Source: a virus | UHGV virus genome: UHGV-1669119 | Reading direction: 5' to 3' (one strand) | Length of the DNA stretch: 18,390 bases | In this document: piece by piece, positions 3,610-17,885 of the stretch | How positions within the stretch are numbered: the stretch's first letter is position 1 | Layout of the letters: every line of letters starts with the position of its first letter | Notes under the pieces: model-generated | The model's input: only the letters and a program-made list of their open reading frames with translations | Told to the model about the DNA's origin: nothing | The model's database searches: none | Program-made: the position numbers and the translations under genes

Positions 3610-3662
3610 AGCTCTGACCTCTACGTTTTGCTACGAAAAAATTTTCTGAGAACCACGTTTGT

Positions 3663-3682
3663 TTATCCGTGGGTGTGGATAA
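3663..3682. promoter_or_regulatory. DnaA-box pair: inverted TTATCCGTG / TGTGGATAA (reverse strand matches the TTATCCACA consensus exactly)
   Basis: Plus 3674-3682 tgtggataa is the reverse complement of the DnaA box consensus TTATCCACA; an imperfect inverted copy sits at 3663-3671. Located 60 nt from the iteron cluster. Confidence 0.4.
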
Positions 3683-3796
3683 CGCAGTTCCGATTCGCTT
3701 ATTACACGCTGTTATGTGCAAAAAATTCCTTGTTCGGCCTGTACCAACCTGTACCCACCTGTACCAGCTCTTTTCAAACCTTTTCCCCAAGCGACT

Positions 3797-3809
3797 TATA
3801 TATATATAT
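3797..3809. repeat. (TA)n dinucleotide tract, candidate DNA unwinding element
   Basis: tatatatatatat at 3797-3809, centred between the direct and inverted iteron blocks. Confidence 0.85.
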
Positions 3810-3870
3810 GGGGTTCTTAGTAATTAGGTTGGTACAGATGGTACAGTTGGTACTGGCCTTTAAATTCAAT

Positions 3871-3909
3871 TAGTTAAAATGTACCAACCTCTATTTTGAG
3901 GTTGGTACA
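3871..3909 (-). terminator. Hairpin plus U-tract at the primase 3' end (minus strand); formed by an iteron inverted pair
   Basis: 12-bp perfect inverted repeat TGTACCAACCTC / GAGGTTGGTACA (3880-3909) with a 6-nt spacer overlapping the primase stop codon; followed on the minus strand by UUUUAACUAAUU. May act as both terminator and iteron pair. Confidence 0.35.
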
Positions 3910-6083
3910 GGTTGGGACACCGCCTCAAAAATTCGAGTCATTTTCCCCCCAATTCGCCTTTGGGCACGCTTATACCCGCAATTTTGCAAAACATTACTAA
4001 TTCGCATTTCTTCGCGTTTTCCGATGCGGTCAGGATTTAGCCCAATCGCATCACGCAAAACATCACTTGCGCGTAAAAATTCGCAATTTCGCGGAAGTTC
4101 ATTAGTCATCAGGTCTGGCGTGTCGAGCCATTTCTCTACCGTTTCAAGCCAAGCATCCTTGATGGTGTACTGTTCATGGACACTCGCTGCCAGTTGTTCA
4201 GCCTCACGGAACTGGATACCCCCCAGACGCTGAAACACCTCACGAGCCTCAGCCCAAAGTAAAAGGAGATCTCTTTTTATCGCTTTCACGTCGACTTTCG
4301 ACACTTCCACGGGGAGCCAGCGACGGTTACCAGTCTTGTCCGCAAGGAATTCGTCCTCATTGGTGGTACCAACGAACACCAGGCGACGAGGAAACTGGGT
4401 GGCGAACTCCCGGTATTTCGGGATCCAGTTTTCGTGAGTACGCGTCACAAACGCTTTGATTGACTCCAGCTCTTTGGTATTAAGTCCGCGCAGTTCACCA
4501 ATCTCTGCCACCAGCCGACCACGCATTTTTCGAGCGAGATCATCGTCTTTTTCGGCAAAAGAGATTTCAGTAAAAAACGCAGGATCAGGGCTCAGTGCCT
4601 CCACTCCGGAAGACTTACCGCAGCCCTGCGGACCAACGAGGATCGGCACCATATCCGCTTTGATGCCTGGCTCCAGTACTCGCCCCGCCAACGCGGTCCA
4701 CATGTACATAGACACCGCACGGGTATAAGGCGTGTCGGCGGTACCGAAGTGCGTATGGTAGAAACATTCGATGCGCGGCACGCCATCCCACTCCAGTCCG
4801 TTCAGCCAAGTGATCGCTGAATCGAATGGTTGTTCATCGGCTGCAAGTAACACCACATCGCGAATAAGTTCACGACCAACAGGTTTAAATCCCCGCTTTT
4901 CCATCGTGATGCGCAGGCGCGCATAATCCGCATCGGTGAATGCCCGCCATTGTCCGGATCCTGCAGGGGCAAACATGATTTCGTCGCGGAACTGGTCAAA
5001 GCGAATATCGATGTCCACAAAATCAGGGCGTACTACTGCTTTGGCTGCGTTGCTGATTGTTGCCTCGATACGCCCCCATTTATCACGCTCGAAAGCAGGC
5101 AGCGGTAAAGGTTCCGCCACTTCGGTGCTGGTCAGATCTTCGAAATCGTCGTTGCGGATCCCGATGGCATTAAGGAAATCTCCGTCATCACGATGCGCAC
5201 AACTGGCATGCAGGCATTTAAAATGCCCCTGCTCAAAGCCCGCGGTTCCCGCAGGAAAATAAACTGTGCTTGTTGGATCGCCCCCGCTACTGTGGCCGTC
5301 TTCAAACGGACAGCGGATATATCGTTCACCATTTGCGCCATCCAGCAGCGTCCAGCCATTGGCATCAAGATATTCAGCTGTATCATCCGTCGCGCCGGGC
5401 GTGAATGCTGATCGGTCGCGCATCTTCGTGTTGCCCGCTTCGGTGGTTACCGACACAGGGAGTTGTTCAGCCAGGCGCTGCCACAGCGTTTCAAGCTGCT
5501 CACCAGTAATAGCCGGAGGTTCATCCGGCAAACCGCCGTCCCATTCAATACGCGCGCCGCTGCTGTGCGTACCGCAGGCAACGAACTGCTGCCCGTTCGC
5601 CAGCAACTCGATAATGCCCATATCCCCCGCCAGGCGATGGATACGCTTACGGAAATCACCATCAACGGCCAGCAGATACAGACACTTATTACTGTTTGCT
5701 CGCCAGCGTCGCGGCGGCAACTCACCCAGAAGTTGCACAAGCGTTTTGCGAATATCTGCCTGAATGTCTTCATCTTCGCTATCACAGTCCAGCGCCAGCC
5801 AGCCATGGCCTGTACGCACGCAGATGCCATAATCCGGTTCATTCGACCAGCGGGCAAAATCATGCTCAGTAACAACATGCCCGGTCCATTGAGCAATACC
5901 GGTGACCTGGCGGTCCCGGTTATAGCGACTCGGCGTCTTACCCAACGCTTTCAGTTTACTATCAGGGGATATGGTCGCACTGGGGTTACATACAACTGGG
6001 AGAAGATGATCAGTTCTCCCCAATACCAGGTCGAAATGAAACCACTCATCAGGCGTAGCTCCCCATGGTTTGCTATCGGACAT
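3891..6083 (-). CDS. Replication primase/helicase-like protein: N-terminal bifunctional primase-polymerase domain plus C-terminal VirE/P-loop NTPase domain (P4 alpha-like)
   Basis: 730 aa. N-terminal prim-pol style motifs (GICVRTGHGWLALDCDSED), central Cys/His cluster (CPFEDGH...HFKCLHASCAH), Walker A VGPQGCGKSS. Start ATG 6081-6083 is 3 nt after the cro stop. Confidence 0.8.
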   Translation of the reverse strand: MSDSKPWGATPDEWFHFDLVLGRTDHLLPVVCNPSATISPDSKLKALGKTPSRYNRDRQVTGIAQWTGHVVTEHDFARWSNEPDYGICVRTGHGWLALDCDSEDEDIQADIRKTLVQLLGELPPRRWRANSNKCLYLLAVDGDFRKRIHRLAGDMGIIELLANGQQFVACGTHSSGARIEWDGGLPDEPPAITGEQLETLWQRLAEQLPVSVTTEAGNTKMRDRSAFTPGATDDTAEYLDANGWTLLDGANGERYIRCPFEDGHSSGGDPTSTVYFPAGTAGFEQGHFKCLHASCAHRDDGDFLNAIGIRNDDFEDLTSTEVAEPLPLPAFERDKWGRIEATISNAAKAVVRPDFVDIDIRFDQFRDEIMFAPAGSGQWRAFTDADYARLRITMEKRGFKPVGRELIRDVVLLAADEQPFDSAITWLNGLEWDGVPRIECFYHTHFGTADTPYTRAVSMYMWTALAGRVLEPGIKADMVPILVGPQGCGKSSGVEALSPDPAFFTEISFAEKDDDLARKMRGRLVAEIGELRGLNTKELESIKAFVTRTHENWIPKYREFATQFPRRLVFVGTTNEDEFLADKTGNRRWLPVEVSKVDVKAIKRDLLLLWAEAREVFQRLGGIQFREAEQLAASVHEQYTIKDAWLETVEKWLDTPDLMTNELPRNCEFLRASDVLRDAIGLNPDRIGKREEMRISNVLQNCGYKRAQRRIGGKMTRIFEAVSQPVPTSK

Positions 6084-6299: not shown

Positions 6300-6317
6300 T
6301 GCTTTCACCTCATACAA

Positions 6318-6419
6318 TTTTAGTGGTATTTAGCAACAACAAACGAGGTTTGTCAAATACAACAAAAATTGTTTTTAATGTGGGGATACACATTAATACA
6401 ACCCAGAAGGACTAATCCC
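6318..6419. promoter_or_regulatory. Immunity-region operator/promoter interval (OR-like) between divergent cro and cI
   Basis: Palindromes with ACAA...TTGT half-sites: ACAAACGAGGTTTGT (6338-6352) and ACAACAAAAATTGT (6358-6373). GAAGGA Shine-Dalgarno for cI at 6405-6410. Confidence 0.5.
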
Positions 6420-7043
6420 ATGTCTCTCGCAGCCCGTTTTAAAGCACGTCGTTTGGAATTAGGAATGACTCAAGTGGAAGTAGCGAATTCTGCAGGGGTT
6501 AGCCAACAATCCATAGAATCCATCGAAAGTGGACGAACCAGAAAGCCACGCAATCTTCTGGATCTGGCTAAGGCCTTGAAATGTAGCCCAGACTGGCTAC
6601 TGAACGGTAAAAATATTATGCCTCTCGCGGAGATAAGTACCAGACGCATACCTATATTAAGTTACGTTCAGGCAGGAGAGCTTACAGAAGCAAGAGACAT
6701 AACAGATCTGACAGGGGAATTTGAATATATTTTGGCAGACTCTGACATTCCAGAAACATGCTTCGCATTACGTATCGATGGCGACAGCATGCAACCAGAG
6801 TTTAAAGAAGGAGACATTGTTATCATCGATCCTGATCTATGTCCTGCACCAGGGGAGTTTGTTGTCGCCAAAAACGACGGTCACGAAGCTACATTTAAAA
6901 AATACCGTCCATTAGGAATCGGCATCGACGACTTTGAATTAATCCCCCTAAATCCTGATTACCCTATTTTTCGTAGTGCAGATATGAACTTACAGATCAT
7001 AGGTGTAATGATCGAACACCGTATTTACCGCCGTAAACGTTAG
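6420..7043 (+). CDS. cI: CI-like repressor: N-terminal HTH_XRE plus C-terminal S24 (LexA-like) self-cleaving peptidase domain
   Basis: Track ORF starts at TTG 6369; likely true start is ATG 6420 (MSLAARFKARRLELGMTQVEVANSAGVSQQSIESIESG...). Ala-Gly cleavage motif (VQAGE), catalytic GDSM serine and downstream FKK lysine. Confidence 0.85.
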   Translation: MSLAARFKARRLELGMTQVEVANSAGVSQQSIESIESGRTRKPRNLLDLAKALKCSPDWLLNGKNIMPLAEISTRRIPILSYVQAGELTEARDITDLTGEFEYILADSDIPETCFALRIDGDSMQPEFKEGDIVIIDPDLCPAPGEFVVAKNDGHEATFKKYRPLGIGIDDFELIPLNPDYPIFRSADMNLQIIGVMIEHRIYRRKR

Positions 7044-7062
7044 TATTCCCACCGTAAATATC

Positions 7063-7082
7063 GGGAGGCGTAACAGCCTCCC
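7063..7082. terminator. GC-rich stem-loop just after cI (possible weak or bidirectional terminator)
   Basis: GGGAGGC-gtaaca-GCCTCCC, 7-bp perfect stem; flanking T-tracts are poor on both strands. Confidence 0.3.
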
Positions 7083-7147
7083 TTACCCCATTTGTAAAGT
7101 CTTACAAATTAAATTCACTTAAATATCAATAAAGTAGTATTCACACC

Positions 7148-7198
7148 CCACAAAATACCACATTTGTGGTTTACATAATACAACTCAAATTGTATCTT
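7148..7198. promoter_or_regulatory. OL-like operator region downstream of cI
   Basis: CCACAAAATACCACATTTGTGG (7148-7169) and ATACAACTCAAATTGTAT (7178-7195) share the ACAA/TTGT half-site and the ATACAAC...AATTGT core with the OR palindromes. Confidence 0.4.
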
Positions 7199-7365
7199 TA
7201 GCCACAAGTCGAACGGCGCGACTCTAAACCATGCGTCGGGACCGTGGCGGGACAGGATGTCGGCAATACGGGTCAGTAAGTTCCCTTTGGGGTGCGGCGA
7301 AGCACTGTCTACTGATACAAGTCGAAGCCGCCGAACCACCAAAGTGAACTGAATGAGGAAACGGC

Positions 7366-7560
7366 GTGAAAACGTATAAACCGCTCAAAGGTGAATGCCC
7401 TGCTTGCCAAACACAGCTTCTGACACCAAAGCCAAAACGATACCAAATCAACGAATGTTATGAGCACTGCCCTGGATGTGGTGCTTTCCTGCATACCATT
7501 GCAACGCACTGGCGTGTCCGCTTCAACCTTGTGGTACCACGTACGCACAATACCAACTGA
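7366..7560 (+). CDS. Small zinc-ribbon protein (64 aa), first gene of the early-left operon
   Basis: GTG start with GAGGAA 7 nt upstream; two CxxC pairs (CPAC ... CPGC); basic C-terminus. Followed immediately by a strong terminator. Confidence 0.5.
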   Translation: MKTYKPLKGECPACQTQLLTPKPKRYQINECYEHCPGCGAFLHTIATHWRVRFNLVVPRTHNTN

Positions 7561-7591
7561 ATCATCCATGTAATTGCTGTGTGTAGTCTTT

Positions 7592-7617
7592 GCCCGCCTC
7601 ACGTGACGGGCTTTTTT
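7592..7617 (+). terminator. Rho-independent terminator (plus strand) after the zinc-ribbon gene
   Basis: GCCCG-cctcacgtga-CGGGC followed by TTTTTTAT (7612-7619). Confidence 0.6.
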
Positions 7618-7676
7618 ATGTCTGAAAGCGCACTCGCAACAGCGTGCTCCCCGATATGAAAAAAGGAATACAACCG

Positions 7677-7826
7677 ATGAAACCTGAACACATCCATCGA
7701 CTGACGGGGCGCGATGTTCTCCGTTATCGCCGTAAAAACTTCGATTTGATGACCGGTCTGGCCGTTGCCACTGCGCTCGGTCTGATCATCACTTTCATTC
7801 TCCTTGTAGCGAGGACCACAGTATGA
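7677..7826 (+). CDS. Small membrane protein (49 aa, single C-terminal transmembrane helix)
   Basis: Track ORF 7644..7826 starts at a GTG; ATG 7677 has AAGGAA 8 nt upstream. Hydrophobic stretch LMTGLAVATALGLIITFILLV. Stop overlaps the start of the next gene (ATGA). Confidence 0.45.
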   Translation: MKPEHIHRLTGRDVLRYRRKNFDLMTGLAVATALGLIITFILLVARTTV

Positions 7827-8725
7827 GTTTAGAAACCAGTCTAGAACTTAATAATCAACTTCTGGCACAACATAATGCGCTGCTTGAACGTCTTATCCGC
7901 ACAATGGCATCAGGCATTGTTATGCATCCTGACACGATTTCACGAGTGCAGGAATGTCGGGATACAGCAACTGAAACTGAAAATATGTCAGCGGCAATGA
8001 CACTGGATGATCTGGAGTTCAGCGACGTTATCGCACTGGCTGGTTTCTACCCGGTAGCCACCCCTATCACAGAAGACATGCTGCAACGTGCTGTTGCCTA
8101 CCGTGATGCTGAAGGCGATAAACGAGTTGTTCAGATTGATGCTCTCGACAGCGCATTGCAGGGCGTCAAACGAGCCAGGGCGCTGCTTAAACCTGCTCTC
8201 CTGGACCTGTCCCGTAACATCCTTAAGTTCTGGGACGACCTGCCAACCATCGGCGAGCGACGTGCTTTTGCCGAGCAGCTACTTGATGCACCTGCAGATG
8301 GGCGTGATGAAGTTAAGCCGAAAAAGGCCAGTAACAAAGATGGAGAACGCACGGGGCCGTTTTACGTCAAAAATGTATCCGGCACAGCAGCCAGTGAACT
8401 CCATACCTTACGCAAGTTGAACGAGATGCTTAAAAAAGGCCATATCGAGATCAACCGTGTTGAGTACCTTCAGCTGCAGGAAGAATTTGCACGCAGAGAC
8501 GCAGCAAATTCCAGCCAGAATAATGACGCCAAAGATGACCATACAATTGATTTCGCGGCACTACGCAAACAAGCTGAAGGGTTGATCCTCCAGTTAGCAA
8601 AAGGGGGTTACCGGGCAGAAGCTATTGCAATTCTGGAAAAACAGGGAGCCAGGAAACTTGGTGAAGTAACGGATGAAAATCTCGCTGAAGTAATCACCCT
8701 GGCTGAAAAAGCACTGGAGGGTTAA
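7823..8725 (+). CDS. Hypothetical protein (300 aa), acidic and predicted largely helical
   Basis: Long ORF translationally coupled to the upstream small membrane protein and ending 2 nt before the DUF2800 gene. No catalytic motif recognised. Confidence 0.55.
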
Positions 8726-8727
8726 TC

Positions 8728-10029
8728 ATGCCAGACGTTCATGCACAACTTTCTCCATCATCAGCGCATCGATGGATGCGCTGCCCAGGAAGTCTGGCGC
8801 TGGAGGCCACACAACCGGATAAAGAAACAACTTTTGCAATCGAGGGCACTGCAGCGCATGCACTTGCCGAAAAGGTGCTGCGCAACCGCCAGAGCCACCC
8901 GGAGCACTATGCAGGTTGCAACGTCGCGATGTTCCTTGGATCCTATCCTCTTGCTGAGCACCCGGATGATACTTCCGGCCCGCAGGTAGATGAGGAAATG
9001 GTCGAAGCCGTTGGTCGTTACGTCGACACTGTTTGGGCGCTGGCGCAGGGCAATGAGCTGCTGGTCGAGCAGCGTGTCGACTTCTCCCATATAACGGGTG
9101 TGGAAGAATCTTTCGGAACTGCCGACAGCATAATCATTGCTGGTAGCGAATTACAAATCCACGACCTGAAATATGGCAAAGGCGTCCGCATTGATGCAGA
9201 ACAAAATGAGCAACTACAACTGTATGCTCTGGGTGCGCTCGAACAATTCAGCATGCTGTATGACTTTGAGACTGTAAGATTATTTATTCACCAGCCGCGG
9301 CTTAACCACGTTTCAGAGTGGGCTCTGACGGTGGAAGAGCTCCAGGCGTTCGGTGAACGGGCACAGGAGGCCGCAACCAGTGCGATCCTTGTTCTCAATA
9401 TTGCTGAATGCGAAGGCATTGAGACACTACCGCTGGAAAACTTCATACCTGGAGAAAAACAGTGCCGCTTCTGTAAAGCAAAAGCTATTTGCACTGCCCA
9501 GAAAATGCAGCATTTACAAACAGCGGCCAGCGACTTTGAAGATCTGACAAAGCCTGTCAGCGAAATAATCACCAATGCCAGCGCACGTGTACCTCTGTTA
9601 ACCATTGAGCAGCTTGCGGAGATCTATAGCCAGACCGACTTTATTGAGTCCTGGCTAAAGGCAGTACGGGACCGGGTTCACAATGAACTCAATGCCGGAC
9701 ATCCGGTACCGGGGTTTAAACTGGTAACAGGAAAACAAGGTAACCGGGCCTGGAGTGATGAAGAGGCAGCTCGCGCACTTCTGAAGGACCAGTTCAGGTA
9801 CAAAACTGAAGAAGTATTCGACTTTAAACTTATTAGTCCCACAAAAGCCGAAAAACTTATCAAAAAGGCCAGTCCGCGCCGTTGGTCAAAAGTCGAGGCA
9901 CTGATAACACGAGCTGATGGTAAACCCACCGTCGTTCCCGAGTCAGACCCACGCCCCGCACTCAATATCAACCCTGTAAATGATTTCGACGACGTATCCG
10001 ACGATACGCTAACCGCAGACCTCATCTGA
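8728..10029 (+). CDS. DUF2800-family PD-(D/E)XK nuclease (Cas4/RecB-like exonuclease fold)
   Basis: N-terminal [15 protein letters not shown] signature, D...K core (IHDLKYGKG) and C-terminal cysteine cluster ([10 protein letters not shown]). GGAGGG Shine-Dalgarno. Confidence 0.7.
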
Positions 10030-10044
10030 TTTAAGGAAATCCCC

Positions 10045-10593
10045 ATGAAACTGAAGCTGAACAATGTTCGTCTGGCCTTCCCGTCTCTGTTTGAAGCTAA
10101 AACTGTAAACGGCGAAGGCGATCCGCGTTTCTCCGCAGTATTTTTAATGTCTCCCAAACACCCACAACTGGAAGAAATCCGTAAAGCTATGAAGCAGGTA
10201 GCGAAGGAAAAATGGGGGGAGAAGTGGGAGTCCATTTATAACCAGCTGGAGAAAAAACTCAATCTGTGCCTGCATGATGGTGATGAAAAAGCAGAGTATG
10301 AAGGCTTTCCCGGCAATTTCTTCCTGAACGCTGCTAACAAAGCGCGCCCAGCTGTTCTTGATCGCGATCGTTCGCCACTAATTCAGGCTGATGGACGTCC
10401 CTATGCAGGGTGCTATGTAAACGCCGTTATCGATATCTGGGCACAGGACAATAATTTCGGTAAACGCATTAATGCCTCACTCGGCGGAGTCCAGTTCCTG
10501 CGAGACGGCGATGCATTCGCTGGCGGCGGAGTGGCAAGCGCTGACGATTTCGACGATATCAGCGAAGGTGCTGATGCTGAAGCACTAATTTAA
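10045..10593 (+). CDS. DUF2815-family protein (ssDNA-binding-like partner of DUF2800 and phage DNA polymerase)
   Basis: MKLKLNNVRLAFPSLFEAK... N-terminus characteristic of DUF2815; acidic C-terminal tail (DDFDDISEGADAEALI); conserved position between DUF2800 and polA. Confidence 0.65.
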   Translation: MKLKLNNVRLAFPSLFEAKTVNGEGDPRFSAVFLMSPKHPQLEEIRKAMKQVAKEKWGEKWESIYNQLEKKLNLCLHDGDEKAEYEGFPGNFFLNAANKARPAVLDRDRSPLIQADGRPYAGCYVNAVIDIWAQDNNFGKRINASLGGVQFLRDGDAFAGGGVASADDFDDISEGADAEALI

Positions 10594-10644
10594 AAATATT
10601 CATCCCCCAGCTGCGTGCTGGGGGATCTCATGAGGGAAAGAATA

Positions 10645-11283
10645 ATGTCACAGCCCGTATTAACTAATTACCTTAAAACTCAAATCATCAATAACGCACT
10701 TGAGAAAGCGGGTATCCCCAAACGTAAATCAGCACTACGAGCTGCTCGTGTTGAATGGGCCGAACGTGTTCGGCTTGCAGCTATCGGGGGCGTAGAGAAA
10801 GAAGCTGAAATATTAAAAAATATAAAAAAAATAGAAACACTGGTATCAAAATTCCCCGAAGCATTAAAAACCGCCAATAACATTATCAGGGAAGAGTGTT
10901 ACATGTGTCTGAATCTGGCAGGTTCTCGGGTTACCGTCTATTTCAACGGTAACTACCGAGGATATGAATCAGGGTCACCAGACCATATTCACAAAATCGC
11001 GCCGGGGGAATTTACCCTTCTGGCAAATGACCCTCTAGTTACAGAGTTTTACGGGTTTGATACACTTTATGAGCAGATACAGAGCGATGAGTCAGACATT
11101 CGACAGAATGTCAGCGCTGCACTCAGTAAAGTGCGCACAGTTAAGCGCCTGCTGGAAGAGTGGCCTGAAGCTAAAGAACTTCTGCCAGCCGATGCACCAT
11201 CTGCTCCGCTTCCGCCAGCTATACGACGCGAAACTCTCAACGAAATGATCGGCCTCCCTTCTGACGAAGGGGTAGATGCTTAA
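10645..11283 (+). CDS. Hypothetical protein (212 aa) in a low-GC island
   Basis: Track ORF 10615..11283; ATG 10645 has AGGGAA 6 nt upstream. AT-rich codon usage relative to the flanking replication genes. No recognisable motif. Confidence 0.5.
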   Translation: MSQPVLTNYLKTQIINNALEKAGIPKRKSALRAARVEWAERVRLAAIGGVEKEAEILKNIKKIETLVSKFPEALKTANNIIREECYMCLNLAGSRVTVYFNGNYRGYESGSPDHIHKIAPGEFTLLANDPLVTEFYGFDTLYEQIQSDESDIRQNVSAALSKVRTVKRLLEEWPEAKELLPADAPSAPLPPAIRRETLNEMIGLPSDEGVDA

Positions 11284-11350
11284 TATTTCTTATAACAAAG
11301 GCTGGCTTAAGAAAATAGTTATCCAAACCAGCCTACCGCAATACTAAAAA

Positions 11351-11620
11351 TTAAAATTCATTGAATTTAAAAAGACATTTCCCTATTGGATTGCCATAGT
11401 CTCTACATACCGAAATGCTGTCCCATACAGGCTGAGCCAAACACCCAAGAAAGAACCCAATAAGCGCAAAAATTATAATTTTGGGAAGAACACGATCCTT
11501 AGGACCTTCTTCACGTTCGAGCCATGCGCCACCAGCCCGAACTATTCTCCCTAAAATATAAAGAATGGGGAAAGCAATAATACCTATCAATGAAAGTATT
11601 CCGATACCAAAGCTAAACAC
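11351..11620 (-). CDS. Small membrane protein (89 aa, two predicted transmembrane helices), antisense to the surrounding operon
   Basis: GTG start 11618-11620 preceded by AAGGAG at 6-nt spacing; hydrophobic segments FGIGILSLIGIIAFPILYILG and IIIFALIGFFLGCLA; low GC; convergent with the 212-aa ORF and divergent from polA. Confidence 0.55.
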   Translation of the reverse strand: MFSFGIGILSLIGIIAFPILYILGRIVRAGGAWLEREEGPKDRVLPKIIIFALIGFFLGCLAQPVWDSISVCRDYGNPIGKCLFKFNEF

Positions 11621-11676
11621 CGCCGTCTCCTTGTTTATTTACACCTACATAACCATATATCACACAAGGTTATTTT

Positions 11677-13740
11677 ATGTCCAATATACTATGGGGTGAC
11701 CTAGAAACCTATTGCGAAATCCCTATTACGAACGGTACCCATGCGTATGCCGAAGGCGTTGAAGTGATGCTGTTCGCATGGGCTATCAACGACGAGCCCG
11801 TAAACGTGTGGGATATCACTGCCGGTGGTGGTATTCCACACGGCTTATACGAAGCAATCGCAGCCCCTGAAACCCTGCTTTATTTTCATAACTCTCACTT
11901 CGACCGCACCGTCCTGCGTTATGCAATGCCGCGCCTGGCACCGCCAGTCGAACGTTGGCGCGACACAATGGTGCAGGCGCTGGCGCACGGTCTCCCGGGG
12001 TCTCTGGGGGAACTCTGCGAAGTACTAGGCGTCCCGCAAGACAAAGCGAAGGACAAAGAAGGTAAAGCGCTGATCCAGCTGTTCTGTAAGCCACGCCCGA
12101 AAAACAGCAAACTGCGCCGGGCCACCAGCAAAACCCACCCGGAAGAATGGCGGCGCTTTGTTGCTTACGCCGGACTGGATATCGAGGCAATGCGCGAAGT
12201 CTATAAACGTCTGCCGAAGTGGAATTATCAGGGGACAGAACTGGCGCTCTGGCATCGTGATCAGCAGATCAACGACCGGGGCGTCTGCATGGACATTCAA
12301 CTCGCGCGCGCTGCGATCGAAGCGGTAGACCAGGAGCAAAAGCGCCTGGCAAAGCGTACACAGGAAATGACTGATGGCGAAGTGCAGGCAGCAACACAAC
12401 GGGACGCGTTGATTAAGCACATCGTTGAATCCTACGGTGTGGAGCTACCAGACATGCAACGCAGTACTCTGGAACGTCGTATAGCCGACCCCGATTTACC
12501 ATCTGCCGTGAAAGAACTGCTGGCTATCCGCCTGCAGGCCAGTACTACCAGCACCAGTAAATACAAGGCACTGATGAAAGGCGTAAGCCACGACGGGCGC
12601 TTACGCGGTACGCTACAGTTCTGCGGGGCGTCACGTACCGGTCGTTGGGCCGGACGGCTATTCCAGCCCCAGAACCTTCCCCGCCCTTCACTAAAACAGG
12701 AACAAATAGACGAAGGCATCGAAGCACTGAAAGCCGGATGTGCAGACCTGCTGTTTGACAATATCATGGAACTAACCAGTTCAGCGTTACGTGGCTGCAT
12801 TATCGCGCCAACAGGCAAAAAACTGGTGGTAAGTGACTTGTCGAACATTGAAGGCCGTATGCTGGCATGGCTGGCGGGAGAAGAATGGAAACTGAATGCA
12901 TTCAGAGAGTACGACGCCGGAACGGGTCCGGACTTATATAAACTGGCGTATGCAAAAGCTTTCGATATTGCACCAGATGATGTTGATAAACACATGCGTC
13001 AGATCGGTAAAGTCATGGAACTCGGTCTGGGTTATGGAGGTGGTGTATCGGCTTTCATCACTTTTGCTCTGGTTTACGGTCTCGATCTCGACGAGCTGGC
13101 GAACGCCGCACTGCCAAACATTCCCCGCGATGTTATCCGCGAGGCGAAAAGCTGGTACAACGAATCGGTTAAACGTAAGTCGACCTTTGGCCTGTCCGAG
13201 CGTGTATTCATCGCATGTGACTCGCTCAAGCGCCTGTGGCGCAGGGCGCACCCGGCGACCTGCGATTTCTGGTACGAACTGGAGCGCACCGTCCGCACTG
13301 CAATCGCCACACCGCAAAAAACATTGTATTGCGGTTATCTTAAAATCCGCCGCGATGGCGCGTGGCTGCGCATACAGCTACCATCCGGACGCGCTGTATG
13401 CTACCCCTCTCCGGTTATCGAAAAAGGGAATATCACCTATATGGGTGTTAACTCTTATTCGCGTAAATGGCAACGACTCAAAACCTACGGCGGAAAGCTG
13501 GTAGAGAACGTCACCCAGGCGGCCGCCCGCGACGTTCTGGCCGGAAACATGCCGCTTATCGAAGATGCCGGTTACAGCATTGTGCTGACGGTACACGACG
13601 AGGTGATCACCGAAGCACCTGACACAGAAGATTTCAACGATAAAGCGCTTTCCGCGCTTCTCTCCACTAACCCCGAATGGGCGCCCGATATCCCACTGAA
13701 CGCTGGCGGTTTTGAGGCGTACCACTACCGTAAGGATTAA
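11677..13740 (+). CDS. DNA polymerase, family A (phage-type, with N-terminal 3'-5' exonuclease-like region)
   Basis: 687 aa; Pol A palm motifs including ...[11 protein letters not shown]... (motif A-like D...E), ...[16 protein letters not shown]... (motif B-like K...YG) and ...[11 protein letters not shown]... (motif C HDE). Confidence 0.85.
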
Positions 13741-13745
13741 TCGCT

Positions 13746-13949
13746 ATGACTGTAATCAAAACGCATACCGGAACGGTTATTACCCGCACCGGTGAAAAGC
13801 AGGTGCAATTGCATCAAAACGCGACAACGTGGGTGGCTGGCCCAAAAGAGTATTACTACAAAGACACTGGCCGCCGCGGTGGTGCTGTCGGTGTCCGCAC
13901 TCGTCTGGTGCTGAGCAGCATCCGCCCAATCGAAGCAAAGCAGGAGTAA
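13746..13949 (+). CDS. Hypothetical small protein (67 aa)
   Basis: ATG 6 nt after the polA stop, AAGGA upstream; no motifs recognised. Confidence 0.4.
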   Translation: MTVIKTHTGTVITRTGEKQVQLHQNATTWVAGPKEYYYKDTGRRGGAVGVRTRLVLSSIRPIEAKQE

Positions 13950-13954
13950 CCCCT

Positions 13955-14176
13955 ATGTCATTTAAATATCGGGACAGTCCGCTTTATTACCGGGCTGCGA
14001 GGGAGGCCTTGCGCCTTGAGCAGTCCGGCGAATATGACCGGGCAGCGAAGGTCTGGGCCAAGGCTAACCGCCAGTCACGTAACGAACTGAATCAGGACTG
14101 GAGCGAACGCCGGTCTGATTTTTGTCTGATGCAGAACATGCGCGAAAAGCGTAAGGCGGTGAGCGATGACTTGTGA
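13955..14176 (+). CDS. ANR-family-like small regulator (73 aa)
   Basis: Track ORF 13829..14176; ATG 13955 with GGAG 8 nt upstream. MSFKYRDSPLYYRAAREALRLEQSGEYDRAAKVWAKANRQSRNELNQDWSERRSDFC fits the ANR pattern as I recall it (Y..AA..A..E..G.Y..A..W..A ... W ... C). Confidence 0.5.
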   Translation: MSFKYRDSPLYYRAAREALRLEQSGEYDRAAKVWAKANRQSRNELNQDWSERRSDFCLMQNMREKRKAVSDDL

Positions 14177-14648
14177 GCAGACCATTCTTGACATGTGCTG
14201 CGGCTCTCGTATGTTTTGGTTCGACAAGGAGGACAAGCGCGCCGTGTTCAGTGATATCCGCGCCGAGCAGCATGAGCTTTGCGACGGTCGCCAGTTGGTT
14301 ATAAGTCCGGACCTTATAGCTGATTTCCGCGCCCTTCCCTTTGCCGATAACACTTTCCCTGTCGTCGTTTTCGATCCGCCGCACCTCGAGCGCGTCGGCG
14401 ATAACGCATGGATGAGGAAAAAGTACGGGCGGCTCAACAAAGAAACATGGCGCGATGATCTTCGCGACGGCTTCGCCGAAGCATTCAGGGTATTGCGGCC
14501 CCACGGTGTACTCATATTCAAATGGAACGAAACGCAGATCCCGGTAAGCAATATCTTGGCGCTGACCGACGAGAAGCCGGCCATATGGCAACGAACCGGA
14601 AAAGCCGACAAAACCCACTGGGTTATTTTCGTCAAAGGTGTGGAATGA
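14166..14648 (+). CDS. Small SAM-dependent DNA methyltransferase (N6-adenine / N4-cytosine class, DPPH motif)
   Basis: Motif I-like LDMCCGS and motif IV VVVFDPPH; 160 aa; start overlaps the ANR-like stop (ATGACTTGTGA) and stop overlaps the VRR-NUC start. Confidence 0.6.
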   Translation: MTCEQTILDMCCGSRMFWFDKEDKRAVFSDIRAEQHELCDGRQLVISPDLIADFRALPFADNTFPVVVFDPPHLERVGDNAWMRKKYGRLNKETWRDDLRDGFAEAFRVLRPHGVLIFKWNETQIPVSNILALTDEKPAIWQRTGKADKTHWVIFVKGVE

Positions 14649-14941
14649 TGGCCTACGAACGTGAAAGCCTTATCGAAAAGCACCTCGTCGCCGAAGTGAA
14701 AAAGGCTGGCGGGGTCGCCTTTAAGTTCGTGTCACCCGGTCGCCGCTCGGTACCGGATCGCATTGTCCTGCTACCCGGCGGTCGCATCGTCTTTGTCGAA
14801 TGCAAAGCGCCAAGCAAACCACCACGGCCTGACCAGTTACGCGAGCACGAACGGCTGCGCGCGTTGGGCTTTACCGTGGTGGTATTAGATAGCAAAAATC
14901 TGGAGGGGATATTGTGCGGGGAGCCTATTACAACGAAATAG
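14645..14941 (+). CDS. VRR-NUC domain nuclease
   Basis: Track ORF 14522..14941; probable start ATG 14645 (MMAYERESLIEKHLVAEVKKAGG...). PD-(D/E)XK core PDRIVLL...IVFVECKAP typical of VRR-NUC. Confidence 0.65.
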   Translation: MMAYERESLIEKHLVAEVKKAGGVAFKFVSPGRRSVPDRIVLLPGGRIVFVECKAPSKPPRPDQLREHERLRALGFTVVVLDSKNLEGILCGEPITTK

Positions 14942-15942
14942 ACCCTAACGCAGCACAATGGCTGCGTAACCTTATTGCTGCAGGTCATATCGCCCCGGGT
15001 GAAGTTGATGAAAGGAGTATCGAAGATGTCGCACCAGACGACTTGCGCGGATTCACACAGTGCCATTTCTTCGCCGGGATCGGCGTCTGGTCTTATGCTC
15101 TGCGTCTGGCCGGATGGCCGGATAACAAACCGGTCTGGACAGGAAGTTGCCCGTGCCAGCCTTTCAGCTCGGCTGGTAAAGGCGCTGGGTTTGATGACGA
15201 GCGGCACCTATGGCCAGCACTATTCCACCTCATCAGCGAGCGACGCCCTAAGCTGGTATTTGGCGAACAGGTTGCGGGAGTCAATGCCTGGTTCGATCTT
15301 GTACAAACTGACGTGGAAGCAGTGGACTACGCCTTTGGGCTTGTCCCGTTTCCGGCTGCGGGCGTCGGTGCCCCGCATATCCGAGATAGAGCGTATTGGG
15401 TGGCCGACGCCAGCGGCGAGCGATCACAGCGGTGGCGAAAGCGCCTCAATAGCATTGAGGAAGATGTCTGGAGATCGTCGACCGTCCGGCAACACGCTAC
15501 ACAGCTCCCTGCGGAATTTTGCTCACCTAGCGGGGTGGTACACCCCAACCTGCAACACAAACCCACAGCCGGAGACAAAACGCGGTCTAGAAACCTTAGC
15601 GGGACTATCCAGATTAGCGGGATGGCCGACAGTGACGACGATCGACAACAACCAAGTTCGTGCCGAGGGCGCAGCGGCCAATCATACCGAACGGGGAACG
15701 ACCCTCGGCGGCGCTGCGAGAATCTGCGGCCCAATACGATTAACGGCTGCTGGGATGGTGCTGACTGGCTCCTCTGCCGGGATGGTCGCTGGCGGCCAGT
15801 TGAATCCGGCACATGCCCGTTGGCTAATGGGATTACCTCCAGAGTGGGACGACTGCGCGCCTACGGCAACGCGATAGTCGCACCAGCTGCCGCAACATTC
15901 ATCCGCTCGTTTATGGAATGCGCAGGATACGACCTTATTTAA
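14914..15942 (+). pseudogene. DNA cytosine-5 methyltransferase whose central segment (about 15396-15860) lies in a different reading frame from its N- and C-terminal motifs
   Basis: Frame 1 (GTG 14914, GGAGG upstream) carries motif I FFAGIG, motif IV PCQPFS, motif VI-like GEQV and motif [11 protein letters not shown], then after about 15860 motif X YGNAIVAP. Motif IX ([16 protein letters not shown]) and the repeated GWPTP-type motifs are in frame 2 (track ORF 14975..15877). Both frames are stop-free, so a 342-aa polypeptide is still encoded. Confidence 0.55.
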
Positions 15943-16259
15943 TGCCACTCACATCTGGCATGATACCGTCCAGAAGGTAATTGCTTATATACAACGGAGC
16001 CGCCCATGGCATAAGTATAAGCATGAAGTTTTGTCCAGAAGTCCCCATAAACTAGTATTGGGGCTAAAAATTTTGGATCGCTAACCATAGATGTAGCAGG
16101 AAGCTCGAAACCTTTAGAAAGAATGTTTACCAGTGAAGGGTAATTTTCAAAATCAGTGCTATTCCCGCCCACCTCTAAAGCATCCAGTTCAAAGTCGAGC
16201 ACTCCACCATTTTTGTAATACTCCGGAACAGTTAACCCTGATGTTAACAAAGTAGCCAT
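15939..16259 (-). CDS. Hypothetical protein (106 aa) in a low-GC island, antisense to the flanking genes
   Basis: ATG 16257-16259 with AGGAGG 8 nt upstream; island 15943-16290 is visibly AT-rich (roughly 40% GC by eye) against GC-richer neighbours; stop overlaps the C5-MTase stop. Confidence 0.5.
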   Translation of the reverse strand: MATLLTSGLTVPEYYKNGGVLDFELDALEVGGNSTDFENYPSLVNILSKGFELPATSMVSDPKFLAPILVYGDFWTKLHAYTYAMGGSVVYKQLPSGRYHARCEWH

Positions 16260-16293
16260 TAAACAATCCTCCTGAATTTTAAAGGGTTACATT

Positions 16294-17688
16294 ATGCCCA
16301 AAGTTTTCACGCCTCGCCCCTACCAAGATCTAATTATCAACCACGAAATCGACATTCACCGCTGCAACATCTGGGCAGGGATGGGGATGGGTAAAACCGT
16401 AGCGACACTCACCACGCTGGAAGATCTTTTCATGGCGGGCTCAGAGACACAGCCCGCGCTGGTCCTCGCGCCCCTACGCGTTGCAGCAAGCACATGGCCG
16501 GATGAAGCGCTGAAATGGGGGCATCTGCGCAATATCGAGGTGCAGCCGATTGTTGGTAACGCCAAAGCACGCTCTGCAGCGCTGGCGAACAGCAACGCGA
16601 GCGTGTTCACCATCAACTACGATAACCTTGTCTGGCTGGTTGAGGAATTGGGAGAACGATGGCCGTTCGGTACTGTCATTCCAGATGAAAGCACCCGGCT
16701 AAAATCCTTCCGGCTGCGAGGTGGTGGTAAGCGCGCGGCGGCGCTGGGCAAAGTGGCGCATAAGTATGTCCAGCGCTGGATAAATCTCACCGGTACGCCA
16801 GCACCGAACGGCCTGGTAGATTTGTGGGGACAATTGTGGTTTGTGGACCAGGGGCAACGTCTCGGGCGCACTTACGGCGCGTTTACCTCACGCTGGTTCA
16901 ACTCGATACAGTTTCCGGGGCAGAGCTGGACCAAACTGGAGCCGTTTGCTCACTCACATGCTGAAATACAGCGAGCGTTAGCCGATGTGACCCTCTCGCT
17001 GGATGCGGCCGACTGGTTCGATATCAAAGACCCCATCCATAACGTAATCCGCGTGGATATGCCGCCGAAGGCCCGTCAGCAGTATCGTGAAATGGAAAAG
17101 GAAATGTTCCTCGAGCTGAACGGCGAAGGCATCGAAGCACCAAACGCCGCGGCAAAGACACTGAAGTGTCTGCAAATCGCCAGTGGCGCAGTATACACAG
17201 ACGACACCGGAAGTTGGTCAGAACTGCATGACACCAAACTACAAGCGCTGGACAGCATACTGACCGAAGCAGCTGGCGCACCTGTGCTGGTTGCTTATCA
17301 CTGGAAACACGATCTTGAACGCTTGCTTAAAGCATTCCCTCGCGGTCGTCACCTCGACCAAGATCCACAGACACTGCGCGACTGGAATTCCGGAAAGATT
17401 CCTGTTCTCTTTGCACACCCAGCCAGCGCGGGCCACGGTCTGAACATGCAGGACGGCGGAAACATACTGGTATTTTTCTCACACTGGTGGGACCTGGAGC
17501 AGTATCAGCAAATTATTGAACGTATCGGCCCCACCAGGCAGATACAGGCCGGACACAATCGTCCGGTATTTATTCACCACATTATTGCGGCCGACACTAT
17601 GGACGAAATGGTGATGGAGCGGCGCAACTCAAAACGAACAGTGCAGGACATCCTGCTCGATGCCATGAAAAAGAGAGGTATAGCATGA
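16294..17688 (+). CDS. SNF2-related DEAD/DEAH-box helicase (phage replication/recombination helicase)
   Basis: 464 aa; Walker A GMGKT, motif II VIPDESTRLK, helicase C-terminal motifs; commonly co-encoded with DUF2800, DUF2815, PolA and VRR-NUC. Confidence 0.8.
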   Translation: MPKVFTPRPYQDLIINHEIDIHRCNIWAGMGMGKTVATLTTLEDLFMAGSETQPALVLAPLRVAASTWPDEALKWGHLRNIEVQPIVGNAKARSAALANSNASVFTINYDNLVWLVEELGERWPFGTVIPDESTRLKSFRLRGGGKRAAALGKVAHKYVQRWINLTGTPAPNGLVDLWGQLWFVDQGQRLGRTYGAFTSRWFNSIQFPGQSWTKLEPFAHSHAEIQRALADVTLSLDAADWFDIKDPIHNVIRVDMPPKARQQYREMEKEMFLELNGEGIEAPNAAAKTLKCLQIASGAVYTDDTGSWSELHDTKLQALDSILTEAAGAPVLVAYHWKHDLERLLKAFPRGRHLDQDPQTLRDWNSGKIPVLFAHPASAGHGLNMQDGGNILVFFSHWWDLEQYQQIIERIGPTRQIQAGHNRPVFIHHIIAADTMDEMVMERRNSKRTVQDILLDAMKKRGIA

Positions 17689-17885
17689 GCGAGAAACCCG
17701 ACGATTTACTCACCCCAGATGAAGTATGCCAAAAGTTAGGTATTACACAGAAAACGCTATGTGAGTGGAATATTAAGCATCGTCATCGGGCTATCCTGGC
17801 ACCAATTCGTTTCAGTGCAAAAGTAGTTCGTTATGAGCGCCGAAATGTCGACGCTTTTATTCAAAAGTGTCGCAGCCAGTATTAA
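17685..17885 (+). CDS. AlpA/excisionase-like helix-turn-helix protein (66 aa)
   Basis: LLTPDEVCQKLGITQKTLCEWNIKHRH...APIRFSAKVVRYERRNVDAFI fits the small excisionase/AlpA HTH pattern; ATGA overlap with the helicase stop. Confidence 0.5.
   Translation: MSEKPDDLLTPDEVCQKLGITQKTLCEWNIKHRHRAILAPIRFSAKVVRYERRNVDAFIQKCRSQY

Follow-up and report, generated by a model that had tools for sequence, protein, structure and literature searches.

The window analyzed here is an 18,390-nt stretch of the virus genome UHGV-1669119, which is an Escherichia coli prophage. On its plus strand, the head of the early-left operon carries a sigma-70-like promoter (7170–7198), an element at 7205–7274 that very probably encodes a put-type (putL-like) antiterminator RNA, with which the repressor-controlled early-left transcript begins, a long imperfect hairpin (7279–7350), a 64-amino-acid (aa) open reading frame (ORF) with four cysteines (7366–7560), and an intrinsic terminator module (7572–7617). 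Further plus-strand genes follow downstream of 7617 and form the early-left operon (7644–17885, ~10.3 kb). An earlier note on this DNA had listed a GC-rich leader, the four-cysteine ORF and about 10 kb of early genes, all of which are present in the sequence. The region 7050–7640 was 100% identical in the chromosomes of E. coli BH100, F11 and Ecol_542, and 151 of 5,426 complete E. coli genomes matched some part of it. RefSeq has no annotation within the equivalents of 7050–7640 in E. coli genomes.

The promoter consists of the hexamers TTTACA and TATCTT separated by 17 nt (promoter scan), and both its −35 and its −10 matched the annotated pL of phages HK022 and O276 column for column. The palindrome ATACAA-N6-TTGTAT (7178–7195) overlaps the −10, and a second palindrome, ACCACATTTGTGGT, is located at 7157–7170. 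These operator-like motifs of 7157–7195 recur in the cI/cro intergenic region (6312–6372), so the early-left transcript is plausibly under repressor control. Given this promoter, the leader spans about 7205 to 7365 (~161 nt), and GC content is 0.62 at 7200–7299 compared with 0.26 at 7100–7199. It should be noted that only the first ~70 of the 161 leader bases are put, and that the remainder is a separate conserved hairpin.

A sensitive blastn search with 7050–7640 against phage records showed that 7162–7278 matches the pL-putL regions of HK022, O276, HK75 and HK639, with E-values down to 1e-10. The matched region is labeled "putL: antiterminator RNA" in the record of O276, an HK022 derivative, and "putL-like antiterminator RNA" in that of HK639. 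The search also hit parts of phiEt88 and of several Salmonella phages that carry no annotation. The alignment to HK022 stayed in register all the way from the −35 hexamer to the last base of put. The put core, comprising stem I (AGNCGAACGGCGCGNC...UAAACCAUGCGUCGG) and the stem II internal loop (GGCGGG/CGGCAAU), was present in the window, where a 28-nt put-core pattern had one match, compared with none in 200 shuffled sequences. The window also scored 92.7 bits (E about 1e-25) with a covariance model built from the 51-sequence put alignment described below. The suggestion in the earlier note that the leader could be a put-like cis-acting RNA was therefore borne out, with its first 70 nt being a homologue of HK022 putL and not just an analogue.

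Positions within the element were numbered according to the cryo-EM study of HK022 putL (PMC9378689), with A3 at 7207. The 5' duplex is formed by A3–G7 (7207–7211) with C15–U19 (7219–7223), the triplex strand lies at 7225–7229, stem Ib pairs 7214–7218 with 7234–7238, and stem II occupies 7240–7274. In HK022 putL, deletion of positions 3–7 and changes at A9, U28, G35, G45 and A64 are inactivating (PMC9378689). All of these were kept in the window, namely the 3–7 duplex, A9 (7213), U28 (7232), G35 (7239), G45 (7249) and A64 (7266). Over positions 7–47, the window differed from HK022 solely at position 17, at U20, and at the paired stem II positions 38 and 41; U20 is the sole position at which mutations were inert in HK022 (PMC9378689). 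The compensatory changes from HK022 to the window are A5-U17 to U-A, G38-C70 to C-G, C41-G66 to U-A, and U48-A58 to A-U, the last with one pair fewer. Every pair of the cryo-EM-derived scheme can form in the window sequence. The −10-like AACCAU at 7227–7232 corresponds to the NANNAT motif at +23 to +28, which was proposed to cause a sigma-dependent pause that aids put folding (PMC9378689).

Relatives of the element were retrieved with a pattern that fixed the stem I core only. This core was found in at least 120 IMG/VR viral contigs and in 23 species-representative genomes from several enterobacterial genera, Morganella, Providencia and Gilliamella; the genera carrying it also include Escherichia, Enterobacter, Erwinia, Pantoea and Mixta. 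For the covariation analysis, we used 51 distinct sequences and a pairing scheme that follows the cryo-EM description and includes the pseudoknot-like 5' duplex. Under this scheme, 93.5% of cells were paired and 11 of the 22 pairs had changed on both sides. The covariation score was 0.373 compared with 0.109 for shuffled alignments, none of the 500 shuffles reached 0.373, and sliding the partners by 1–3 columns lowered the score to 0.083 or less. Natural variation supports the cryo-EM pairing scheme. The same put variant occurred in phages with repressors merely 25–60% identical, and the variant of the window was also found in Erwinia and Izhakiella genomes. A few hybrid leaders (L057, L074, L246 and L248 (Mixta mediterraneensis)) have an intact put stem I followed directly by a consensus boxA (…GCGTCGGAACCGCTCTTTAACAATCTGG…) at the place of stem II.

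Several observations weigh against this assignment. The bulged position 68 is G in the window and U in HK022, where deletion of U68 abolishes antitermination (PMC9378689). However, a bulged base is still present in the window, and the position is variable across the put family. Stem II lacks one pair in its upper part relative to HK022, as it does in about one third of the family. When the 72 nt of put were folded by energy only, the result was unremarkable compared with shuffled sequences (z +0.29). We regard this result as uninformative, since it is to be expected of an RNA that has a pseudoknot-like 5' duplex, a triplex and non-canonical pairs and folds on the polymerase. Stem I was invariant by construction, having been fixed by the retrieval pattern, so the covariation signal rests on the 5' duplex and stem II. 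Finally, HK022 carries two put sites, whereas only one was found in the window: with filters off, the covariance model detected no second put on either strand (next best 9.5 bits), nor did a search of the window with a loose pattern, although the model is biased toward putL and a very divergent putR could be missed. The cro-like gene is followed by no intergenic space. A second element (putR) is typical of HK022 and HK75 and is not defining for put RNA. Rfam gave no matches across the whole window at the gathering threshold, and Rfam 15 gave none over the put region even at E-values up to 10, suggesting that this release is without a put family.

Downstream of the leader, the terminator module consists of the single-stranded sequence AAUUGCUGUGUGUAGUCUUU, a hairpin at 7592–7611 and a U6 tract at 7612–7617 (fold and Rfam). 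The hairpin, GCCCGCC-UCACGU-GACGGGC, is composed of five G-C pairs, one C.A mismatch and one more pair, with a predicted free energy of −9.8 kcal/mol; 7 of 200 shuffled sequences folded as well. The segment 7592–7617 was missed by a simple terminator scan solely through its loop counting. It is predicted to be a canonical intrinsic terminator, moderate in strength and not exceptional; the earlier note had called it strong. It is the first terminator that a put-modified polymerase has to pass.

The terminator module resembles the E. coli small regulatory RNA (sRNA) RprA. In E-value mode, the Rfam RprA model (RF00034) matched 7512–7621 with 50.5 bits (E about 1e-5), below its gathering score of 70, and posterior probability was high only from model positions ~60 to 108. 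The 23 consecutive bases AUUGCUGUGUGUAGUCUUUGCCC (7573–7595) are identical to rprA of E. coli K-12 and are followed by an equivalent G+C-rich terminator hairpin and U6 run at the same spacing. Together, the terminator and the 20 nt in front of its stem (7572–7617) correspond to the last 47 nt of RprA, in which AAUUGCUGUGUGUAGUCUUUGCCC is followed by the terminator hairpin and U tail; this processed form, RprAproc, is active on its own (PMC9262595). Unlike RprA itself, the phage element lacks the RprA 5' hairpin and has no evident Rcs-type promoter, and it is located at the 3' terminus of a phage mRNA. The window does not conserve the rpoS-pairing region, which is partly kept in two related loci (L012 and L013).

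The exact 23-mer ATTGCTGTGTGTAGTCTTTGCCC was found in at least 120 viral contigs, and host rprA is not among them. Using this 23-mer for retrieval, we collected 121 viral sites with the terminator module; such loci include L012, L013, L029, L043, L053, L065, L087, L093, L126 (2508–2556) and L236 (2213–2260). The sites fall into two contexts, namely the phage family of the window and the long untranslated early-left leader of lambdoid phages of the LLS type. The stem behind the 23-mer varies with compensation (position 5 is G-C, A-U, C-G or U-A), and the 23-mer stays exact or drops one GT unit while neighboring proteins fall to 60–80% identity. The 23-mer may either be selected for itself, for Hfq binding, base-pairing or as a processing site, or be refreshed repeatedly from host rprA. 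A literature search for an RprA-like phage element and for the 18-nt string returned only papers on RprA itself. It has been suggested that the N-less lambdoid phage LLS may use put (PMC12315714). However, the put covariance model found nothing in the LLS leader (L236, 1796–2423; best 10.3 bits), nor in phage vB_EcoM-606R2 or 11 further loci with the LLS type of leader. The 630-nt LLS leader contains a GCCTGATGTGGTTAAAAGCAGGC hairpin, which is common also to vB_EcoM-606R2, and ends in the RprA-like terminator.

At 54 of the 121 collected viral sites, the terminator module is followed by the same operon as in the window, beginning with genes for a 60-aa protein, a 300-aa protein and a DUF2800 protein. 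Among these 54 sites, put was present within 2.5 kb upstream in 18 and the consensus boxA GCTCTTTAACAA instead in 28, and no site had both. Phage vB_EcoM-606R2 is of the boxA type, with an rrn-type GCTCTTTAACAA at L126:1594–1606, and further examples are the IMG/VR loci L134, L136 and L147. Such an alternation of put and boxA ahead of the same terminator and operon is as expected if read-through is required there, and it supports the view that an antitermination device would be needed at the head of the early-left operon. Both rrn-type boxA and the lambda nut sites with N protein perform the same task as put, at the head of an early operon and 5' of the first terminator. However, nut and boxA recruit NusB/NusE (and N), while put needs no protein, and no consensus boxA (CGCUCUUA / GCUCUUUAACAA; GCTCTTTAACAA) was found in the leader of the window, nor was a boxB found in the window. 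As the earlier note had stated, no N-like antiterminator was evident: none was found among the tested ORFs of the window with Pfam and PHROG, or in the RefSeq annotation of the copy in E. coli O55:H7 CB9615. The sole antiterminator protein in these two sets belongs to the Q family, for late genes.

The hairpin at 7279–7350, which separates put from the ribosome-binding site ahead of the first ORF, has a predicted free energy of −29.5 kcal/mol (z −3.8), and none of 200 shuffled sequences folded as well. A fold of the whole 182-nt leader gave a z-score of −1.5; the signal comes from this second hairpin. The hairpin occurs at the same place before different ORFs, with insertions and deletions in its tip, in a short form (the window and L087) and a long form (L012, L029, L043 and L121); compensatory changes support a single pair. 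As a folded structure, it might insulate put folding from downstream RNA or ribosomes, stabilize the mRNA or provide a processing site. The sequence ACAAGTCGAA, noted earlier as duplicated, is indeed present twice, at 7204–7213 and at 7317–7326 (not at 7313, as first given). We rejected it as a functional duplicate, as the second copy is in the variable apical loop of this hairpin and is partly kept in relatives (ACAAGCCGAA in L012, GGGTCGAA in L087).

The 64-aa zinc-ribbon-like ORF has a GTG start, is preceded by GAGGA at 7355–7359 and contains the motifs CPAC...CPGC. Its cysteines C11, C14, C35 and C38 are invariant in the three known homologues, so it looks like a real gene; two homologues have 88% and 75% identity, the latter from Enterobacter. 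A search of 5.8 billion proteins gave three protein clusters. Pfam zf-IS66 scored 25.9 bits, under its cut-off of 27.3, and other PHROG and Pfam matches were sub-threshold or of unknown function. RefSeq omits the ORF in all 30 full-length-matching E. coli genomes listed, each at least 99.0% identical. At this place, unrelated ORFs of 34 to ~180 aa are found in sister phages that share the put, hairpin, terminator and operon of the window. The variable gene slot (7351–7571; also in L012, L013, L043, L053 and L087) is bordered by ...AAAGTGAACTGAATGAGGAA on the left and ...CTGAATCATCC(ATGTA)ATTGCTG on the right, with CTGAAT in both borders. Judged by this distribution, the ORF would be cargo in the variable slot and not part of the antitermination device.

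Three explanations would dispense with an active put RNA. One of them takes up a candidate of the earlier note, with the 64-aa zinc-ribbon protein as the antiterminator, acting on polymerase or on the leader RNA, and the put-like sequence being incidental. Small zinc-binding proteins can bind polymerase or nucleic acids, and this ORF, with its conserved cysteines, is the first gene after the promoter, as is N in lambda. However, it was present in only 3 of 123 other put loci and replaced in sister phages, it lacks an arginine-rich motif, and its position 5' of the terminator would require action in trans after translation, whereas put explains the read-through without it; we consider this role very improbable. 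Equally hard to credit is a nut-like (boxA/boxB) leader that works through the Nus factors of the host, whether or not an unrecognized N-like protein takes part. Close relatives do carry a consensus boxA at the equivalent place, and the boxA-like CGACTCTAAA (7219–7228) and CGGGAC repeats of the window had earlier been read in this way. However, CGACTCTAAA departs from the boxA consensus and equals put C15–A24, comprising the 3' strand of the 5' duplex and the triplex strand, and the two CGGGAC copies (7237–7242 and 7248–7253) equal put positions 33–38 and 44–50 in the 5' strand of stem II. Both motifs are thus parts of put stems I and II, and the mutual exclusion of put and boxA among the relatives also speaks against this explanation. 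The main rival to put is that the element is an inactive relic and that the downstream genes are expressed via a leaky terminator or internal promoters. The modest terminator stem and promoter-like sites at 7828–7876 would fit, and the prophage may be defective in some hosts. However, a relic would not be expected to keep every functionally critical residue or to change by compensatory substitutions only, nor does decay fit the persistence of the variant in phages with highly diverged repressors and in Erwinia and Izhakiella. We therefore regard the relic as improbable, though less so than the other two.

A fourth explanation is compatible with put. In this case, 7572–7617 would mainly make an sRNA equivalent to the 47-nt form of RprA, Hfq-dependent and with host targets, rather than gate the operon, and put would govern the balance between sRNA output and early-gene expression. 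The rprA identity starts at the RprAproc start, the terminator architecture is equivalent, RprAproc acts alone, and the 23-mer remains exact in two leader contexts that are unrelated, with compensation in the stem behind it and divergence in the neighboring proteins. However, the promoter scan found no promoter-like site just upstream of 7572–7617, and the Rfam match is under threshold without the rpoS-pairing region. An exact 23-mer could also reflect repeated recombination with host rprA, or a good terminator could simply have been borrowed. We consider this sRNA role possible but doubtful. A shade more doubtful is a coupled switch of an RNA antiterminator and an sRNA mimic, in which the device, put or boxA, would split polymerases between a short Hfq-binding RNA and the replication genes.

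The identification of put is based on homology, retention of critical residues, covariation of the structure, putL-type placement, the downstream terminator, the lack of a detected N-like protein and the alternation with boxA. Its biochemical action in the window is extrapolated from HK022, whose put acts on the same E. coli polymerase. Once repression is lifted, RNA polymerase would start at ~7205, and AACCAU at +23 to +28 may briefly hold sigma-70 while the nascent RNA adopts the V-shaped put structure with its two stems. The RNA would then bind its own polymerase at the beta' zinc-binding domain and the beta flap tip and travel along with it, keeping the polymerase non-swivelled, suppressing pausing and hindering hairpin formation at the RNA exit channel, with no phage protein needed. 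The modified polymerase would read past 7592–7617, and past any intrinsic or Rho-dependent stops further on, to transcribe ~10 kb of genes for replication, modification and excision. A polymerase that fails to acquire put would stop at 7617, giving an RNA of ~410 nt with the small ORF and an RprA-like 3' end.

The prophage copy in CB9615 adjoins yfhL and is 99.2% identical over its 7050–7640 stretch. According to the CB9615 layout and the ORFs of the window, the integrase is on the strand opposite to the early-left operon, and the divergent side carries a Cro-like helix-turn-helix (HTH) protein, a VapE-type primase, the Q-family antiterminator, lysis genes, terminase and a contractile-tail module. 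A CI-like prophage repressor with HTH and S24 peptidase domains (6420–7043, plus strand; Pfam Peptidase_S24 2.3e-21, HTH_3 1.2e-12) is encoded just 5' of the put promoter, as HK022 cI is 5' of pL, and its equivalent in CB9615 is annotated in RefSeq as a LexA family protein. The repressor gene is followed by the plus-strand hairpin GGGAGGC-GUAACA-GCCUCCC (7063–7082; predicted free energy −16.1 kcal/mol, z −3.5), probably its terminator, with a weak U tract. The early-left operon, as defined by Pfam and PHROG matches, a terminator scan and the CB9615 prophage map, starts with genes for a 60-aa membrane peptide, a 300-aa protein, a DUF2800 nuclease, an Enc34-type SSB and Nmad5, and also encodes a family A DNA polymerase, methyltransferases, an SNF2 helicase and an excisionase-like HTH protein. 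The terminator scan found a second terminator-like site within it at 14095–14116. Expression of this operon should depend on read-through. A scan of the window for tRNA and tmRNA genes found none. On the minus strand, between the VapE primase and Q genes, dense direct and inverted GGTACA/TGTACC(AAC) repeats flank an (AT)n run at 3610–3910; the array looks like a replication origin with iterons and includes a terminator-like hairpin at 3880–3909.

The closest known counterpart is HK022 putL, the polymerase-utilization RNA with cryo-EM structure 7XUE (Hwang et al. 2022, PMC9378689). This RNA lets E. coli RNA polymerase run past terminators with no protein factor involved. The two elements are both ~70 nt long, lie directly after a repressor-controlled left promoter and face the same host polymerase; stem I differs only in one compensated pair and at the inert U20, and NANNAT at +23 to +28 and the stem II internal-loop residues GGCGGG/CGGCAAU are also the same. 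However, the lower and upper stem II of the window differ in sequence (with compensation) and are one pair shorter, and bulge 68 is G instead of U. In addition, the first downstream gene is not nun, the operon holds a polA/DUF2800/VapE-type replication set rather than lambda-type recombination genes, and no putR partner was found on the other operon. The putL-like RNA of HK639 (GenBank HM208537) shares the 5' duplex variant AGUCG/CGACU and the same stem I with the window, whereas its put is further from the promoter, behind a conserved 'TCGGTC' lead-in, its stem II differs and its genome is lambdoid. The kind of element is known, and the copy in the window is an unannotated one with a different replication module and one put found, possibly included in the list of King et al. 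2011. King et al. 2011 (J Bacteriol 193:5784) reportedly studied the HK639 putL-like RNA experimentally, and further put-like RNAs in HK639 and prophages are said to be described there.

Studied in HK022 since the 1990s, put RNAs are the classic example of a transcript that reprograms its own polymerase. New here is the presence of put at the head of the early-left operon in an E. coli prophage of the polA/VapE type. The structural put paper worked from ten sequences only (PMC9378689), and the put alignment and covariance model obtained here could seed an Rfam family and the annotation of put. The family breadth, the alternation of put and boxA, and the RprA-like terminator are the parts that specialists might follow. 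If the coupled switch is true, the short RNA would mimic or compete with RprA and touch RpoS, NarP and biofilm control, and a letter-perfect RprA copy would be retained, in temperate enterobacterial phages whose leaders belong to at least two unrelated types, at the start of the early-left operon. The alternation of put and boxA before the same terminator and operon amounts to a natural swap experiment for two antitermination mechanisms, and the RprA-like terminator module could connect phage induction with the host stress sRNA network.

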